Shown: piece after piece, positions 7,600-62,104 of the stretch
Numbering within the stretch: the first letter of the stretch is position 1
How the letters are laid out: each line of letters begins with the position of its first letter
Sequence record: ON528736
DNA: 64,000 bases
Source of the DNA: Shigella phage ESh26
Strand: one strand, 5' to 3'
Notes under the pieces: model-generated
Databases searched by the model: none
What the model saw: only the letters and a program-made list of their open reading frames with translations
Told to the model about the DNA's origin: nothing
Program-made: the position numbers and the translations under genes

Positions 7600-7764
7600 T
7601 TACTCTTCTTTTTCTTTAGATTCCTCTTTTTTCTTTTTAGGAATCTGTTCAGGACCTTTATTTACTACAGCGCCTGACGTTGTTCCAGTGGAGATATTTT
7701 CAGGATTACCACCTGAATCTCCAGCTACCATATCTTCTTTGATAAATTCTTTATATGTTTTCAT
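7600..7764 (-). CDS. small lysine-rich protein with CTS-like N-terminus
   Basis: 54-aa ORF below table cutoff: MKTYKEFIKEDMVAGDSGGNPENISTGTTSGAVVNKGPEQIPKKKKEESKEKEE. Confidence 0.4.
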   Translation of the reverse strand: MKTYKEFIKEDMVAGDSGGNPENISTGTTSGAVVNKGPEQIPKKKKEESKEKEE

Positions 7765-51390: not shown

Positions 51391-51789
51391 TTATTTGAAT
51401 GATTTGACGTACTGAATAGAACCTTTACTATTCACGAAAGCGATTTTACCATTTTTGTTATACATGGTAGCAGTACGCTGATAGCCATAAGTTTGCTTAC
51501 CAGATTGATAACCAACTAATGCAAAATTATCTTCACCCATTTTATTCTGCTTCGCGCGGATACGTTCATGACCGTGCGCCATAAGAACCTTAGCATCGCC
51601 AGTTGAAATTGATCTACGAGTTTTTTCATCTTCAACTGTACTAACAAAGTCGTCAAATGAATCAAATTTAGCATGAGATTTATTATACAGTTTTCCATCT
51701 ACTGCATAATTATATCCCTGTACATCCATCTCAACTTCTGTACCATCATCCAATACAGCAGTGATTTTTTGACCTTTTTTAAATTTCAA
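51391..51789 (-). CDS. hypothetical protein
   Basis: 132-aa ORF. Confidence 0.5.
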   Translation of the reverse strand: MKFKKGQKITAVLDDGTEVEMDVQGYNYAVDGKLYNKSHAKFDSFDDFVSTVEDEKTRRSISTGDAKVLMAHGHERIRAKQNKMGEDNFALVGYQSGKQTYGYQRTATMYNKNGKIAFVNSKGSIQYVKSFK

Positions 51790-51877
51790 AAGATCAGTAA
51801 AAGATTCAGCAATAATTTGAGAATTAATAGCTGGCTGCTTCAGTGATAAATTCTTGATATGTTTTCATGTGTTTCCT

Positions 51878-52294
51878 TTAAATGTAAATATTTTTACCGT
51901 AGTATTTATACCAGTGTGGCTTCATTAAAATTTTTTCATCGAGTCGTTGTTGACTCAATTTAATAGCAGATTTGCATGGATTATAATCATTTTTCCATTC
52001 TGCTGGAATATCGCTGATGTCAGGAACTTCAGTATCTTTTATACTAAACCCACGTTTTAAGCATTCCGTTATAATGTCTGATTGACGCTTTCGCAAAAAT
52101 TCTAACTTATCGTAAAAGAACGTAACATGACCAGAACCTAAAATAAACTCAGAAGATATTTTAAAATCTTTAACCCGCTTACCATTTGCCACGTGTTTAC
52201 GAACTATACCAAAAACACGTGGCAATTCACGGTATTCTGCGATTAAATGTTGATCAGCAAGTTCAGATACTAAAGTCAAATTAATACGAGTCAT
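51878..52294 (-). CDS. denV: endonuclease V (pyrimidine dimer glycosylase) DenV
   Basis: Start at [17 protein letters not shown] (138 aa, GGAGG RBS); promoter 52321-52350. Confidence 0.9.
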
Positions 52295-52320
52295 TTTATC
52301 CCTCCAAGTAACTGTGAATA

Positions 52321-52354: not shown

Positions 52355-52885
<531 letters not shown>

Positions 52886-55762: not shown

Positions 55763-55836
55763 AGTATTTCCTTAGGTTGATTAAGATTTAAAATCCGTGT
55801 AGAATTATATCCTGTTATTTGAGAAATGTAAACATG

Positions 55837-56235
55837 TTATTTCATTTTTGCGAGACAGATTTCATTGGCTTCCCATTGAGCTTGCTTAATAATAGCTTTG
55901 GATACAGGAACCTTTTGACCATAAGTTTTTGACGTTGAGAGAACAATATATTTGTTTGCCTCATTATGCCAACCCCATGATTCTTCGCCATGAGTACCTT
56001 TAACTACAGCTGACACCTCAACAGAGCAGCCATCAGAACTAATCTTGGTGTCTACAATCCATTCATTTCTCTCGACAGCTTCATTTTCAGACCTCATTTT
56101 TTCTTCATACACGGCGGCCCAATCAGTTTTTGTCAAGCTTAAACTAAGAGCTTTCTCTAATTCTTTGGCAGCTTTTTGTTGTTCGGGTGTTAATGAATTA
56201 TATAACTCTCGCATTTCTTTATCTTCAATATTCAT
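55837..56235 (-). CDS. hypothetical protein
   Basis: 132-aa ORF. Confidence 0.45.
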   Translation of the reverse strand: MNIEDKEMRELYNSLTPEQQKAAKELEKALSLSLTKTDWAAVYEEKMRSENEAVERNEWIVDTKISSDGCSVEVSAVVKGTHGEESWGWHNEANKYIVLSTSKTYGQKVPVSKAIIKQAQWEANEICLAKMK

Positions 56236-56290
56236 TATGTTCTCCTCAAGTTACAGGCTCATAATATCTAAATCATGAGCCTATGTAAAC

Positions 56291-56554
56291 TTATTTCATA
56301 TTATTGAAATATTCTTCTGCGATTTCGTCGTTATCATGGTAAACTTTAGAAGACAGTTTAACATAACCTTCAGCTGTGAACATATTAATCACAACTTTTA
56401 CAGTATACCACTGACCATCTTCATTACCCATTACTGCGTAAGTTTCAAACATCGGATGGTCAGGACCGATAACTTTAATATCATTCACTGTACGACCGAA
56501 ATCTTCTGAAACGCATTTCATAAAGAAGTTGAACAGTTCGCCGTAATTATCCAT
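56291..56554 (-). CDS. hypothetical protein
   Basis: Start at MDNYGELFNFF after promoter-RBS cassette 56596-56630. Confidence 0.45.
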   Translation of the reverse strand: MDNYGELFNFFMKCVSEDFGRTVNDIKVIGPDHPMFETYAVMGNEDGQWYTVKVVINMFTAEGYVKLSSKVYHDNDEIAEEYFNNMK

Positions 56555-56630: not shown

Positions 56631-56751
56631 TTTTGTGAAAAAATTTTTAGGGAATTATGGGGCAGGGAGGGGCAATTAAAAGGTAGGATAATATATTATA
56701 AAGGGTATAAACTAAATGATGCCTAGAGATGCCCAGAAAGGCCTAGATACC

Positions 56752-56777
56752 AAAAAGCCCTATCATTTAGATAGGGA
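56752..56777 (-). terminator. intrinsic terminator after IPIII-like gene
   Basis: a-run then gccctatc-attta-gataggg. Confidence 0.55.
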
Positions 56778-56784
56778 TTTAAAA

Positions 56785-57348
56785 TTATTTATCTAGTTTA
56801 GTTATTATAGCTTCTGCAGCAGCTTTTAGCTTAGATGCGGTGTTAATACGATTTTTAATTTCAGTATACGCATCGCCAAGAACATCAAGGCTATCAGAAT
56901 AAACACTTACACTATTGCGTTCGCTATTTGAAATAGAACCTTTAGTTTTGCGGTCAAAATCGGTGTACACGTCTTGAAGATCGCGGGCTGCCTTCTTTGC
57001 ATCATCCAATGCATCAAGAGCTTTATTCAAAGCATTAACGTATTTTTTAGTGTCGAACATATTCTTAGAAATTTTAACAGGTGCGCGTTCAGGAGTAGCT
57101 AACACAGATTTAGGAACCTGAGCGCCAGATGCCAATTTCTTAGAAATTTTGAAAAATGCTTTATTGAATTTATTTTCTTGACTCATTGTAAAAGAACTAT
57201 TATCGATGTTGTACATTTCAATAGCTTTAGCTTTCCACTTAAGAAAATCGCCGCGGTCTTTTGGGTCCAATTGGAAGAATACTTTAGTAAGATCTGCTTC
57301 AGATGGTAATTTTGCTGCTTCGGTTAAAAATTCGGCATAGGTTTTCAT
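56785..57348 (-). CDS. internal head protein (IPIII-like)
   Basis: 187 aa; N-terminal MKTYAEFLTEA capsid-targeting-sequence-like; terminator downstream. Confidence 0.65.
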   Translation of the reverse strand: MKTYAEFLTEAAKLPSEADLTKVFFQLDPKDRGDFLKWKAKAIEMYNIDNSSFTMSQENKFNKAFFKISKKLASGAQVPKSVLATPERAPVKISKNMFDTKKYVNALNKALDALDDAKKAARDLQDVYTDFDRKTKGSISNSERNSVSVYSDSLDVLGDAYTEIKNRINTASKLKAAAEAIITKLDK

Positions 57349-57438
57349 TTAAAATCCTTGAAATAATTTATCGGTTGGTTATTAATTATTTATTACTTTG
57401 TTACTATCCGTAGCAGCATTCTCTATGTGATTCAAACC

Positions 57439-57466
57439 AAAAAGCCCCAACCTTTCGGCTGGGGTT
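57439..57466 (-). terminator. intrinsic terminator after IPII-like gene
   Basis: aaaaa then gccccaacc-tttc-ggctgggg (GNRA-type loop on transcript). Confidence 0.6.
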
Positions 57467-57473
57467 AAGAATG

Positions 57474-57947
57474 TTATTTGATTTGTTTAGCAGACCAAAT
57501 GCGGTCTTTAATAATTTTTTGGATGTCTTCAACATACTCAAGAGAGTGAACATGCGGATTATCTTTGAAACTATAAGCACGGGCTAACTTTTGGCCTTCG
57601 GTTTTGATTACTAAAAGCTCTTTAAGGATAGCTTCATATTTAGCGATAATTCCTTTAACGATATTTTTTTCTTGTGCAGCTTTAGGATCTGCTTTAGGAG
57701 CAGGTTTACCCGAAGCCTTTGCAAAAGCAGCGCCAGTAGCAACTAAACTTTTCCAGGCCATACTAACTGCATTTCCCGTAAATCCTTCTGCTTTCATGTC
57801 GCGAGCAAATTGGAATCGTGATTCGTCAGAAGCATCTTTATAGGAATATTTACCCGCTGCAATGGCTGCTTTTGCGACAGCTTGAATTTCGGTGCTAGAT
57901 GCTTCATTTAACACCGCTTCATTTAAAAATTGAGCATATGATTTCAT
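57474..57947 (-). CDS. internal head protein (IPII-like)
   Basis: 157 aa; MKSYAQFLNEA; late promoter TATAAATA at 57988-57995. Confidence 0.65.
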   Translation of the reverse strand: MKSYAQFLNEAVLNEASSTEIQAVAKAAIAAGKYSYKDASDESRFQFARDMKAEGFTGNAVSMAWKSLVATGAAFAKASGKPAPKADPKAAQEKNIVKGIIAKYEAILKELLVIKTEGQKLARAYSFKDNPHVHSLEYVEDIQKIIKDRIWSAKQIK

Positions 57948-57987
57948 CTTATTTCCTGTTTTAATTCGTGGATTTAATATACTACTA

Positions 57988-57995
57988 TATTTATA
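57988..57995 (-). promoter_or_regulatory. late promoter TATAAATA for IPII-like gene
   Basis: Plus-strand tatttata 41 nt upstream of start 57947. Confidence 0.6.
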
Positions 57996-57996
57996 C

Positions 57997-58025
57997 TAAA
58001 AAGCCCCAACCTTTCGGTCGGGGCT
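57997..58025 (-). terminator. intrinsic terminator ending the tRNA-operon transcript
   Basis: aaaaa then agccccaacc-tttc-ggtcggggct. Confidence 0.6.
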
Positions 58026-58336
58026 AAGCCTTGCGGCAACCTTGTCGGGGTTCCACCTGCTAAGGCAAGTGTTTGTACGAAACGCCGGGATTCGAACCCG
58101 GTTATTAAGCAGTTGACGCTACTCAATATTTTTAAAAGGCCATATCTCGACCATATCCGAACGTTCCGTCAAAAACGCTACTCGGCTTACGGCAAAGATA
58201 TTTCCTCGAATCGATAATTCTGTGCGCCGTTTCTGCTGTGATGTAAGGGGACATTAACAGATCGTAAAGATTTGTTAATGCCAGTCCTTACCCAGGGAAC
58301 ATCAGTCCGACGACTTACCGGTAGCGACCCGGTTTC
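58026..58336 (-). ncRNA. structured GC-rich untranslated region after the tRNA operon; possible stable small RNA(s)
   Basis: No ORF; composite hairpin 58243-58291; tRNA T-arm-like CCGGG-TTCGAAT-CCCGG (minus strand) near 58086-58102; ends at terminator 57997-58025. Confidence 0.35.
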
Positions 58337-58687
58337 TTAATATTCTTTTAAAGCATCAATCTGTTCACGGCGTTTACGCCATAAATCAATTGCTTCATAC
58401 GCAGATTCAGCATTTCGAATTAGTCGGCATTTGTGTAAAGACTTGTGATTTTGATATTGCGTAGATAACGAAATTTTATCTAAAAGGTCTTTACGTTCAA
58501 AGTATTCGTAACCATCTAAGCCAAATGAACGATTTTTGAGAAATTGCCAATGACCATATTCGTTTTCGACATAAACATAATCCGCATGTTGATAAAGCAA
58601 ATTAATTACACGTTCAGAAATAACAGTGTCATTGTGATTAAAATAAAATGTTAAATCATGAACTACTAAATAAACATTACCTTTCAT
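58337..58687 (-). CDS. hypothetical protein
   Basis: 116-aa ORF immediately downstream of tRNA-Arg; GAGG RBS. Confidence 0.45.
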   Translation of the reverse strand: MKGNVYLVVHDLTFYFNHNDTVISERVINLLYQHADYVYVENEYGHWQFLKNRSFGLDGYEYFERKDLLDKISLSTQYQNHKSLHKCRLIRNAESAYEAIDLWRKRREQIDALKEY

Positions 58688-58703: not shown

Positions 58704-58779
58704 TGGTCGAGGCAGTAGGGATCGAACCTACGACCTAGGACTTAGAAGGTCCTTGCTCTTCCTTCTGAGCTATGCCCCG
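58704..58779 (-). tRNA. tRNA-Arg (anticodon TCT)
   Basis: Manual cloverleaf: acceptor CGGGGCA/TGCCTCG, loop CTTCTAA, T-loop TTCGATC, encoded CCA. Confidence 0.85.
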
Positions 58780-58783
58780 TAAT

Positions 58784-58859
58784 TGGGGTGACCGATGGGG
58801 GTCGAACCCATGACTACGAGAATCACAATCTCGAGTTCTACCAACTGAACTACGGCCAC
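58784..58859 (-). tRNA. tRNA-His (anticodon GTG)
   Basis: Manual cloverleaf: acceptor GTGGCCG/CGGTCAC, loop TTGTGAT, discriminator C, encoded CCA; no G at -1. Confidence 0.75.
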
Positions 58860-58972
58860 ATTAATACCTACTCCAACAATCAAGATGTCTTCACACGAAA
58901 TTAAGAGAAGAGTGATCAGTTCAACCCTATAATCGCGTCAAGTAGATATTAATGTGACAGTTGTCACAAATT

Positions 58973-59047
58973 TGGCGGACGTGATAGGATTCGAACCTAT
59001 AACCAATCGCTTAACAGGCGATCGCTCTGCCATTGAGCTACACATCC
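58973..59047 (-). tRNA. tRNA-Asn (anticodon GTT)
   Basis: Manual cloverleaf: acceptor GGATGTG/CACGTCC, loop CTGTTAA, T-loop TTCGAAT, encoded CCA. Confidence 0.8.
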
Positions 59048-59051
59048 AAAT

Positions 59052-59138
59052 TGGTGGGGAGTGATGGAGTCGAACCACCCGAGTCGCAATGACAATGGAT
59101 TTACAGTCCACACCGCTACCTCTACGGGATAACTCCCC
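59052..59138 (-). tRNA. tRNA-Tyr (anticodon GTA), long variable arm
   Basis: 87 nt; acceptor GGGGAGT/ACTCCCC, loop CTGTAAA, T-loop TTCGACT, encoded CCA. Confidence 0.75.
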
Positions 59139-59151
59139 TTAATTCTTAATT

Positions 59152-59226
59152 TGGTGGCCCTGGGTGGAATTGAACCACCATCTGGCGATTATGAGTCGCT
59201 TGCTTGAACCTTCCAGCTACAGGGCC
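59152..59226 (-). tRNA. tRNA with anticodon CAT (Ile-lysidine type as in T4, or Met)
   Basis: Acceptor GGCCCTG/CAGGGCC, loop CTCATAA, T-loop TTCAATT, encoded CCA; position after tRNA-Thr. Confidence 0.75.
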
Positions 59227-59227
59227 T

Positions 59228-59303
59228 TGGTGCTGATTGACGGAATCGAACCGCCGACCTTCTCATTACAAGTGAGTTGCTCTACCTACTGAGCTAAATC
59301 AGC
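59228..59303 (-). tRNA. tRNA-Thr (anticodon TGT)
   Basis: GCTGATTTAGCTCAGTAGGTAGAGC...CTTGTAA...GGTTCGATTCC...CAATCAGCACCA. Confidence 0.9.
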
Positions 59304-59308
59304 AAAAC

Positions 59309-59398
59309 TGGCGGAGGCGATAGGATTTGAACCTATGAGTCGCCGGAGCGACTGCCGGTTTTCAAGACCGGTGCATTAAACCACTCTGCCACGCCTCC
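59309..59398 (-). tRNA. tRNA-Ser (anticodon TGA), long variable arm
   Basis: 90 nt; GGAGGCGTGGCAGAGTGG...CTTGAAA...GGTTCAAATCC...CGCCTCCGCCA. Confidence 0.9.
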
Positions 59399-59400
59399 AG

Positions 59401-59474
59401 TCTCCATACAAGGATTTGAACCTTGGACCTCCTGATCCCAAATCAGGCGCTCTACCAAACTGAGCTACACGGAG
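59401..59474 (-). tRNA. tRNA-Pro (anticodon TGG), CCA not encoded
   Basis: CTCCGTGTAGCTCAGTTTGGTAGAGC...TTTGGGA...GGTTCAAATCC; 2 nt from tRNA-Ser (dimeric precursor as in T4). Confidence 0.88.
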
Positions 59475-59484
59475 TAAATTAAAT

Positions 59485-59558
<74 letters not shown>

Positions 59559-59563
59559 AAATT

Positions 59564-59650
59564 TGGTGCGAGAAGTGGGACTCGAACCCACAAGGAAATC
59601 ATTCCGCAGCATTTTAAGTGCTGTGCCTTTACCAATTTGGCCATTCTCGC
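59564..59650 (-). tRNA. tRNA-Leu (anticodon TAA), long variable arm
   Basis: 87 nt; GCGAGAATGGCCAAATTGGTAAAGGC...CTTAAAA...GGGTTCGAGTCCC...CGCACCA. Confidence 0.9.
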
Positions 59651-59651
59651 G

Positions 59652-59724
59652 CTGGGAATAAAGGACTCGAACCTTTGCATCCTGGAATCAAAATCCAGTG
59701 CCTTACCAACTTGGCTAATTCCCA
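59652..59724 (-). tRNA. tRNA-Gln (anticodon TTG), CCA not fully encoded
   Basis: TGGGAATTAGCCAAGTTGG...TTTTGAT...GGTTCGAGTCC...ATTCCCAG; abuts tRNA-Leu. Confidence 0.88.
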
Positions 59725-60735: not shown

Positions 60736-60769
60736 TAATAGTATCACTACCCCATCTAAAAGTAAACTT
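60736..60769 (-). promoter_or_regulatory. early promoter
   Basis: gtaaac 60762-60767, atagta 60738-60743. Confidence 0.5.
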
Positions 60770-61001
60770 ATTTTTTACGAAAAATTGATTTATTTTCTGC
60801 TGCCCATTTTTCAATAACTGCAGCAGGACCAGTAACAACAATTTTATCACCGTAATCTTCTGCGGCGAGTTGACCGAAATTATCTAATGCATCACGAAGA
60901 ACTCCATAAGGCATTTCACCCATTTTATCTTTCTTGCCAGTGTAAATAAACTCAACTTTTACATCAGAAGATTCAGCGATAAACTCTTTGAAAGTTTTCA
61001 T
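60768..61001 (-). CDS. internal-protein-like small protein
   Basis: Start at MKTFKEFIAESSD (CTS-like); promoter 61034-61067. Confidence 0.55.
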   Translation of the reverse strand: MKTFKEFIAESSDVKVEFIYTGKKDKMGEMPYGVLRDALDNFGQLAAEDYGDKIVVTGPAAVIEKWAAENKSIFRKK

Positions 61002-61033
61002 TTTGATTTCCATTTGATTTTGTTTTGATAGGG

Positions 61034-61067
61034 TAATAGTATCACTACTAAAACCCTGTGTAAACAA
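61034..61067 (-). promoter_or_regulatory. early promoter upstream of IP-like gene
   Basis: gtaaac 61060-61065, atagta 61036-61041. Confidence 0.5.
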
Positions 61068-61077
61068 CTTTGTGAAA

Positions 61078-61335
61078 TTATTTTAAATCTTCTAATCGTT
61101 TCTTCATCTTAGAACCATTTTTAGCAATTTCTCCTGCATCGGAGCATAACGCTAAAAGTGCTTTAACTTTAGTTTGGTCTCCTTTAAAAGATGAAGGATC
61201 GACTGCAGCAGCAAGTTCTTTAATACGAGAGAAAAGACGCTCAGCTTCAGCTAAAGCCATTCCAAGCTTTACTTCCATACCGTGAGAAGATTCAGTGATA
61301 GTAGTTTTTGTAGCAAACTCTTTGAAAGTTTTCAT
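61078..61335 (-). CDS. internal-protein-like small protein (ipI position)
   Basis: 85 aa; MKTFKEFATKTT; promoter 61364-61397; adjacent to 57B. Confidence 0.55.
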   Translation of the reverse strand: MKTFKEFATKTTITESSHGMEVKLGMALAEAERLFSRIKELAAAVDPSSFKGDQTKVKALLALCSDAGEIAKNGSKMKKRLEDLK

Positions 61336-61363
61336 TTTATTTTCCTAATTAATTTTGATGAGA

Positions 61364-61397
61364 TAATAGTATCACTACCTCATCAGCATGTAAACAA
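61364..61397 (-). promoter_or_regulatory. early promoter upstream of IP-like gene
   Basis: gtaaac 61390-61395, atagta 61366-61371. Confidence 0.5.
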
Positions 61398-61407
61398 CTT
61401 TGTGAAA

Positions 61408-62104
<697 letters not shown>

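Follow-up and report, generated by a model that had tools for sequence, protein, structure and literature searches.

The 64,000-nucleotide (nt) stretch of Shigella phage ESh26 (sequence record ON528736) analyzed here, called the window below, is a segment of a Tequatrovirus (T4-like) genome. A preliminary description had drawn attention to two genes in it with N-termini resembling a capsid-targeting sequence (CTS), lying between the accessory genes on the nudE side and the tRNA cluster. Both were found there on the minus strand, which carries every gene discussed in this report. The first open reading frame (ORF), ORF-A (57474..57947), encodes 157 aa beginning MKSYAQFLNEA, and the second, ORF-B (56785..57348), encodes 187 aa beginning MKTYAEFLTEA. 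Read in the direction of transcription, an 11-tRNA cluster comes first, followed by a 116-aa ORF, a homolog of rnaC/rnaD, ORF-A, ORF-B, a homolog of e.8, and then the remaining e.x genes, nudE, e, and denV. The upstream border of the slot, the rnaC/rnaD homolog (small stable RNAs; 57993..58337, minus strand), showed 93.6% identity by blastn to T4 70825-71168, which is annotated as rnaC and rnaD in T4; no Rfam family or model matched this stretch, and its identity was taken instead from the blastn match to T4. The downstream border is the e.8 homolog (56291..56554, minus strand), which was matched by blastn to T4 70299-70854 and is annotated as e.8 in LR746311 and in phage ime09. Relative to T4, the 1.2 kb at window positions 56777-57992 are inserted between rnaC and the terminator of e.8. 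The 1.8 kb around ORF-A and ORF-B were 96-99% identical to the corresponding DNA of phages UGKSEcP1, pSs-1, ime09, and fPS-90.

The regulatory signals around the two genes were also examined. Each gene had been credited with its own terminator and one of them with a late promoter, and these features were confirmed. An exact T4-type late promoter, TATAAATA, lies on the minus strand at 57988..57995; it immediately follows the U-tract of the rnaC-side terminator, and the ORF-A start is 48 nt farther downstream. A putative promoter, AATAAATA, which matches the late promoter at 7 of 8 positions, was found 46 nt upstream of ORF-B (57387..57394, minus strand). None of T4 ipI, ipII, and ipIII has TATAAATA within 75 nt upstream. 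Exact copies of TATAAATA in the 64-kb window were all on the minus (coding) strand (8 of 8), and their total of 8 was not above chance (10.3 expected).

Three intrinsic terminators, all read on the minus strand, delimit the slot. The stem on the rnaC side (58025-58002) is followed by a U-tract and had a folding energy of -20.3 kcal/mol (z -3.9). The terminator after ORF-A (57435..57464, stem 57464-57445; repeat family D1), with the structure CCCCAGCC-GAAA-GGTTGGGG plus a U-tract, gave -16.2 kcal/mol (z -2.6), and the one after ORF-B (56748..56776, stem 56776-56758), CCCTATC-TAAAT-GATAGGG plus a U-tract, gave -11 kcal/mol (z -2.9). These three terminators are members of one family of 40-nt direct repeats with 65-85% identity. 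T4 has a lone terminator at this site (70825-70859), which aligned by blastn to both window 57436-57468 and window 57993-58028 and, at T4 70827-70859, was 91% identical to the ORF-A terminator. The slot of ORF-A and ORF-B is a cassette bounded by stem-loops, with repeats on both sides and a single copy at the empty site of the relative, and this arrangement appears to fit the logic of stem-loop-mediated cassette shuffling; modular shuffling of this kind is known in RB49/phi1 (Arbiol et al. 2010, PMC2839356).

The leaders of both proteins were compared with the determinants established for T4 internal protein (Ip) IPIII, in which mutagenesis assigned targeting to positions 4 and 7 and processing to positions 8 and 10 (PMC9026906, summarising Mullaney & Black 1996). 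Codons 1-10 of ORF-A (57918..57947, minus strand) make up a capsid-targeting sequence with Y4, F7, L8, and E10 (residue roles from PMC9026906). The targeting determinants, an aromatic residue at position 4 and Phe7, are present in both ORF-A (MKSYAQF) and ORF-B (MKTYAEF), and so are the processing determinants, Ile/Leu8 and Glu10 followed by a small residue, which form a site of the prohead protease gp21 (L/I-x-E followed by A/G/S), as FLNE-A in ORF-A and FLTE-A in ORF-B. ORF-A has two candidate gp21 sites (MKSYAQFLNE-AVLNE-A, hyphens marking the cuts), the second being LNE-A at positions 13-15, and ORF-B has one (MKTYAEFLTE-A). The window, translated in six frames, contained the motif MK[ST][YF]x[EQ]F[ILVM]xE 5 times, against 0 times in 200 shuffles. 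The predicted mature proteins were about 16.0 kDa with an isoelectric point (pI) of 9.50 for ORF-A and about 19.7 kDa with a pI of 9.46 for ORF-B, similarly basic to IPII (pI 9.56) and IPIII (pI 9.65).

Several Ip-type proteins (window 57903-57947; also L010 4260-4877, L003 9102-9383, and L019 4422-4991) carry a leader extended to 15 residues, with two copies of the cleavage motif, as in ORF-A (FLNEAV-LNEAS) and the JS98-type protein (FLNESVLNEAG). The 5-residue insert in the leader was absent from shorter relatives. The extended leader looks like a duplication of the gp21 site.

T4 IPI, IPII, and IPIII were then compared with the window by BLASTP and tblastn. The preliminary description had placed T4 ipII and ipIII between denV and e, and had observed that e and denV are neighbors here; the placement was correct, the T4 order being denV, ipII, ipIII, e, nudE, e.2-e.8, rnaC, rnaD, tRNAs, trna.2-4, ipI, and 57B, and in the window e (52355..52849) indeed adjoins denV (51878..52293). 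It had called the two genes displaced, and they could be supposed to be ipII and ipIII moved out of the denV-e interval and diverged, since there are two of them, ORF-B (187 aa) is near IPIII (193 aa) in length, and no ipII or ipIII remains between e and denV in the window. However, the T4 proteins matched the window over the leader only (about 11 residues), and nothing in the mature domains of IPII and IPIII aligned with ORF-A or ORF-B beyond residues 1-12. The PHROG assignments differed as well: IPI belongs to family 4363, IPII to 7857, and IPIII to 5341, whereas ORF-A (phrog_2280, E 1.7e-60, residues 1-157) and ORF-B (phrog_2280, E 2e-53, residues 1-181) both fall into family 2280. Moreover, JS98-type, Klebsiella, and Yersinia T4-like phages have a member of family 2280 just downstream of their tRNA genes, and in the lineage of the window the denV side carries ip4. 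A relocation of ipII and ipIII is refuted by these sequence comparisons, and we give it next to no credence. The earlier statement that the mature regions are unlike those of IPII and IPIII held good, but the genes are a separate family in their own e.8-rnaC slot.

Pairwise BLAST between ORF-A and ORF-B showed only the leader in common, and a first profile comparison built on shallow alignments also aligned only the leader. When distant relatives and the JS98 and fHe-Yen9-01 proteins were included, the A-type and B/C-type profiles aligned over 165 columns (hhalign probability 97.9%, E 3e-13), and the JS98-type protein of 205 aa matched phrog_2280 end to end (E 1.4e-59). By these profile matches, ORF-A and ORF-B are distant paralogs in one family, PHROG 2280, which is annotated "unknown function". 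An alignment of 10 members, which were drawn from several T4-like lineages and shared 24-78% identity with ORF-A, had just four invariant columns, M1, F7, L8, and E10. These include three of the four leader positions defined by mutagenesis (7, 8, and 10); position 4 was Y or F in nearly all members. The remotest relatives in a search of 1.84 billion representative proteins still started MxxFx[ED]FLxE. That search gave 14 clusters at E <=0.001, 2 of them spurious, and the family appears small and confined to T4-like phages. A 2146-aa Sushi-repeat protein and a zinc-ribbon protein were rejected as relatives, their matches being due to low complexity or repeats. The named cluster members read for ORF-A and ORF-B, those from RB14, AR1, ime09, pSs-1, and BASEL phages among them, were all labeled "hypothetical protein" apart from one evident misannotation. 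Neither protein had a significant family in Pfam or NCBIfam.

The ratio of nonsynonymous to synonymous substitution (dN/dS) was 0.03-0.08 for ORF-A and 0.05-0.09 for ORF-B in the informative comparisons (dS 0.11-1.9; one near-identical pair was uninformative), and the two are therefore real, constrained coding genes. In most Tequatrovirus records that carry them, ORF-A and ORF-B were 95-99% identical. The preliminary description had called Ip loci hypervariable; for the sequences of these two genes this did not hold, with the identity and dN/dS just given. The variation consists of presence, absence, or replacement of whole cassettes and not of fast sequence change.

The content of the e.8-rnaC slot was surveyed across phages. 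The slot was vacant in T2, T4, and T6. ORF-A was encoded (at least 80% identity) in about 386 of 531 phage records carrying e.8, ORF-B was encoded in 164 of the 531, and in 127 records the match covered 80% or more of the 1.8 kb that contain the two genes. A family member sat in the slot in about 70% of the e.8-carrying records and roughly a quarter were without one; these fractions are approximate, as the phage collection includes duplicate records. In 10 IMG/VR loci, the slot held ORF-A and ORF-B, ORF-A alone, a 205-aa JS98-type protein, or nothing. Shigella phage CT01 (L016 2501-2989) had ORF-B alone, with a clean in-frame deletion in the linker (residues 71-95). In Klebsiella T4-like phages, an A-type gene directly follows the tRNA cluster and is succeeded by small ORFs, a NUDIX gene, a lysozyme gene, and an Ip4-like gene, an order that parallels the e.x genes, nudE, and e in the window. 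Yersinia phage fHe-Yen9-01 carries C-type and A-type genes in tandem downstream of its tRNA genes. The position after the tRNA genes is thus recurrent across several T4-like lineages, and by this distribution, as distinct from a phylogeny, the vacant slot in T2, T4, and T6 looks like a loss. Such polymorphic presence is what is expected of dispensable ip genes.

Natural variants were also seen among the database proteins (P0013, P0021, P0065, P0073, and P0083), several of them frameshift truncations and others deletion fusions to trna.3-like and nudE sequences. They indicate a region with frequent decay and deletion, since parts of ORF-A and ORF-B are fused in them to neighboring genes. At the position of T4 e.7, window 55799-56242 contains a 132-aa ORF (55837..56235) that is unrelated to e.7 and is not in fPS-90, a further variable slot adjoining e.8. 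In database protein P0082, an N-terminus like that of the 132-aa ORF is fused to the C-terminus of ORF-B.

Evidence from virions was available for a close homolog of ORF-A. Gp140 of phage fD1 is 97% identical to ORF-A and its gene is in the same slot. Gp140 was found using liquid chromatography-tandem mass spectrometry (LC-MS/MS) in ultracentrifuge-purified virions (PMC8309999, Table S3), and it was particle-associated also at the stricter threshold of at least 2 peptides and a spectral count of at least 2 (PMC8309999); the fD1 Ip4 homolog, g129, was likewise in the virion list (PMC8309999, Table S3). The detection of Gp140 supports packaging, with low specificity. The leader motif, the regulatory signals, the family relations, the purifying selection, the synteny, and the virion association of the ORF-A homolog all support the same conclusion, namely that ORF-A and ORF-B are probably both packaged and processed internal head proteins, and our confidence is higher for ORF-A than for ORF-B.

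Several points weigh against this conclusion, or against the defense-related role considered below. The fD1 proteome was unspecific: besides 672 host proteins it listed 113-137 of the 277 phage proteins, with denV, lysozyme e, and NudE among those detected (PMC8309999). For ORF-B, a search for virion proteomic data found none, and the fPS-90 paper contains no virion proteome; ORF-B also has no exact late promoter. A near-perfect CTS-like start, MKTYKEFIKE, is present on another protein of the window, a 54-aa acidic ORF (7600..7764, minus strand; start MKTYKEFIKED; phrog_1823, unknown function) directly upstream of primase gene 61. This ORF is a probable T4 gene 61.1 homolog, and it shows that a CTS-like leader by itself is no proof of packaging. 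Structure searches with ORF-A and ORF-B gave generic helical-hairpin matches only, without a functional lead. When ip4-ip10 were assayed against further GmrSD variants, no new inhibitor pairs were obtained (Silas et al., PMC12373910). Finally, cleavage, injection, and an anti-defense role are inferred for ORF-A and ORF-B by analogy with T4.

The leader of the 61.1 homolog and the unspecific fD1 proteome would also suit a different explanation, in which ORF-A and ORF-B are not packaged, recombination, which is known to occur at the 5' ends of ip genes, left them their CTS-like start, and the proteins act inside the producing cell. However, M1, F7, L8, and E10 are the sole invariant positions in divergent members of the family, a degree of conservation that a non-functional relic would hardly show; a late promoter precedes ORF-A; and fD1 Gp140 lies above the stricter threshold of virion detection. 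We consider this explanation quite improbable and retain packaging as the better account of both proteins.

The structures of ORF-A and ORF-B were predicted with AlphaFold2 (AF2). The predicted layout was common to both and consisted of a leader helix, a 3-helix N-terminal domain, a linker rich in Pro, Ala, and Lys, and a long C-terminal helical hairpin; the mean predicted local distance difference test (pLDDT) score was 75 for ORF-A and 61 for ORF-B, the ORF-B model being weak. No target was suggested for either protein by the sequence and structure searches. Packaged and injected proteins of this kind might have a general role, such as DNA binding, charge neutralization, or help with ejection, instead of inhibiting a specific defense. 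Both proteins are basic (pI about 9.5), the linker and long hairpin offer no recognizable binding fold, a dN/dS of 0.03-0.09 is unlike a fast arms race, and ip4-ip10 showed no GmrSD phenotype (PMC12373910). On the other hand, no general virion function depends on ORF-A or ORF-B, because T2, T4, T6, and many relatives, amounting to roughly a quarter of the e.8-carrying records, manage without them. Polymorphism in the presence of a cassette is typical of host-range accessory genes, and all three T4 Ips of known function are specific anti-restriction proteins. A general role is in our judgment unlikely.

The alternative to a general role is that ORF-A and ORF-B are specific anti-defense factors. 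Each of the T4 proteins Ip1, Ip2, and Ip3 blocks one GmrSD type IV restriction enzyme, without cross-protection (PMC12373910), and IPIII is required for growth on ECOR17 (PMC9391042). Several active GmrSD variants were left without a known inhibitor (PMC12373910). Since ip4-ip10 yielded no new inhibitor pairs, not every Ip need target GmrSD. The preliminary description had suggested that the two divergent internal proteins may be directed at different host defenses, and by analogy with the distinct GmrSD enzymes inhibited by Ip1, Ip2, and Ip3 this is a reasonable inference. For ORF-A and ORF-B, a specific anti-defense role seems possible by the same analogy, with a probability that falls somewhat short of an even chance.

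The course of events that we propose runs as follows. ORF-A would be synthesized late from its own TATAAATA promoter, and ORF-B would be transcribed from the weaker AATAAATA or on transcripts that run past the ORF-A terminator. Guided by their N-terminal capsid-targeting sequence, both proteins would enter the scaffolding core of the prohead, where gp21 would cut off the leader after Glu10, with a possible cut after Glu15 in ORF-A as well; for fD1 Gp140, the predicted neo-N-terminal peptides after gp21 cleavage are AVLNEASSTEIQAVAK or ASSTEIQAVAK. The basic mature proteins would stay in the head with the DNA and be co-injected, and after injection they may neutralize a host defense acting on the incoming modified DNA, most plausibly, to judge from the T4 Ips, a GmrSD-type (type IV) restriction enzyme. 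The terminator-bounded cassettes in the slot downstream of the tRNA and rnaC-rnaD cluster could be gained, lost, or swapped by recombination between the repeated stem-loops.

A broader proposal, which we put forward tentatively and as clearly less than an even bet, is that PHROG 2280 (ORF-A, ORF-B, and the JS98-type protein) represents a third, ancestral, and overlooked Ip locus of the Tevenvirinae that was lost from T2, T4, and T6, and that its members are injected inhibitors of defenses for which no phage inhibitor is known. The GmrSD clusters that restrict T-even phages and that none of Ip1-Ip10 blocked (Silas et al. 2025) are among the candidates for the targets. Two Ip loci are described by Silas et al. 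(PMC12373910), and the leader sequences of ORF-A and ORF-B were not found in the supplementary text of that paper. A third locus beyond those two is indicated, whose family is labeled hypothetical in public databases and whose carriers include many phage-therapy isolates of E. coli, Shigella, and Yersinia. Recognizing PHROG 2280 as an Ip family would improve the annotation of many genomes. ORF-A and ORF-B are concrete candidates for the GmrSD variants without a matched inhibitor, and because T2, T4, and T6 naturally lack them, a simple host-range experiment is possible.

Other ip genes in the window had been missed in the preliminary description, namely those for Ip5 and Ip6 and a broken ip4. 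Ip5 (61078..61335, minus strand; 85 aa), with the IPI-type leader MKTFKEFATKTTITE, lies at the canonical ipI locus and is identical to a T6 CDS annotated Ip5. Ip6 (60768..61001, minus strand; 77 aa, MKTFKEFIAE...), at the same locus, belongs to phrog_8111 ("internal virion protein") and is a homolog of T6 Ip6. The ip4 (IpIV, DUF7412) pseudogene (51391..51868, minus strand) is immediately downstream of denV, and in an alignment with the intact fPS-90 g125c it had the leader MKTYQEFITEAA and then a frameshifting 4-bp CAGC duplication (window GAAGCAGCCAGCTATT, fPS-90 GAAGCAGCTATT). The duplication was in no phage-collection record among the matches listed and in no IMG/VR contig; either it is an inactivating mutation private to this genome, or it arose as an error in sequencing. 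A late promoter, TATAAATA, lies at 51910-51903 (minus strand), at -42 relative to ip4.

Upstream of Ip5 and Ip6 (window 61001-61075 and 61335-61410), as upstream of T4 ipI, ipII, and ipIII, there is a hairpin that overlaps a sigma-70-like promoter, resembling a promoter-early stem-loop (PeSL). Ip5 and Ip6 have no TATAAATA within 75 nt upstream, while ORF-A and ip4 have exact late promoters, and the two groups of ip genes may be differently regulated. The order e-denV-ip4 in the window corresponds to e-ipIII-ipII-denV in T4. The denV stretch at 52005-52298 had 78% DNA identity to T4, against 94-96% in the flanking genes, and the denV-ip module appears to have been swapped as a block. A recombination point is suggested by the 5' end of ip4, which shared 91-93% identity with its counterparts in T4 ipII and ipIII.

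The tRNA cluster (58704-59724) contains 11 tRNAs (Arg, His, Asn, Tyr, Met-CAU, Thr, Ser, Pro, Gly, Leu, and Gln) and is without the homing endonuclease gene segB, whereas T4 has 8 tRNAs and an inserted segB.

The slot and its genes can be compared with several known systems. Like the PeSL cassettes of RB49/phi1, it holds accessory ORFs between conserved GC-rich stem-loops beside a promoter, and where the site is empty, in the related phage T4, there is one stem-loop, as recombination between flanking stem-loops predicts. The promoter joined to the stem-loop is, however, a late one (TATAAATA) in the window and an early sigma-70 promoter in PeSL, and cassette recombination in the window is a proposal read from the sequence.

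Like IPII and IPIII, ORF-A and ORF-B begin with a capsid-targeting sequence of 10 residues that ends in (I/L)-x-E, have small basic mature proteins, and are encoded by dispensable co-oriented genes on the minus strand in the accessory region from e to the tRNA genes. They differ from them in locus (e.8-rnaC against denV-e), in leader (FL-x-E against FIAE), and in having no similarity past the leader; injection and the inhibition of particular GmrSD enzymes are established for IPII and IPIII (PMC12373910) and would hold for ORF-A and ORF-B by analogy. IPI and its mature form IPI* (phrog_4363), a GmrSD inhibitor whose structure has been solved, offer a likeness in leader-directed packaging and gp21 processing, which for ORF-A and ORF-B would hold by analogy, and in the position of the gene beside the tRNA region in a hyperplastic cassette locus. 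In contrast, the leader of IPI is 19 residues long and its compact fold consists of two beta-sheets with alpha helices on their flanks (PMC3012670), while for ORF-A and ORF-B the models predict all-helical two-domain proteins, and neither showed structural or sequence similarity to IPI*; ipI also lies upstream of the tRNA cluster (trna.4-57B), and ORF-A and ORF-B lie downstream of it.

The closest parallel in behavior is with the alternative T-even Ips (Ip4/IpIV = DUF7412, Ip5, Ip6, and Ip7), which are also CTS-bearing cassettes that replace one another between related phages. Those proteins, however, come from the two classical loci and bear the annotation of internal head proteins, whereas ORF-A and ORF-B are "hypothetical" and occupy a third slot. 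Diverse CTS-bearing internal proteins in hyperplastic loci were reportedly described by Repoila et al. in 1994, and this kind of protein and locus is already well known. What is apparently new, with ip4-ip10 compared by their database names only, is that PHROG 2280 is probably a CTS-bearing internal-protein family with a third locus of its own, one that is missing from T2, T4, and T6.

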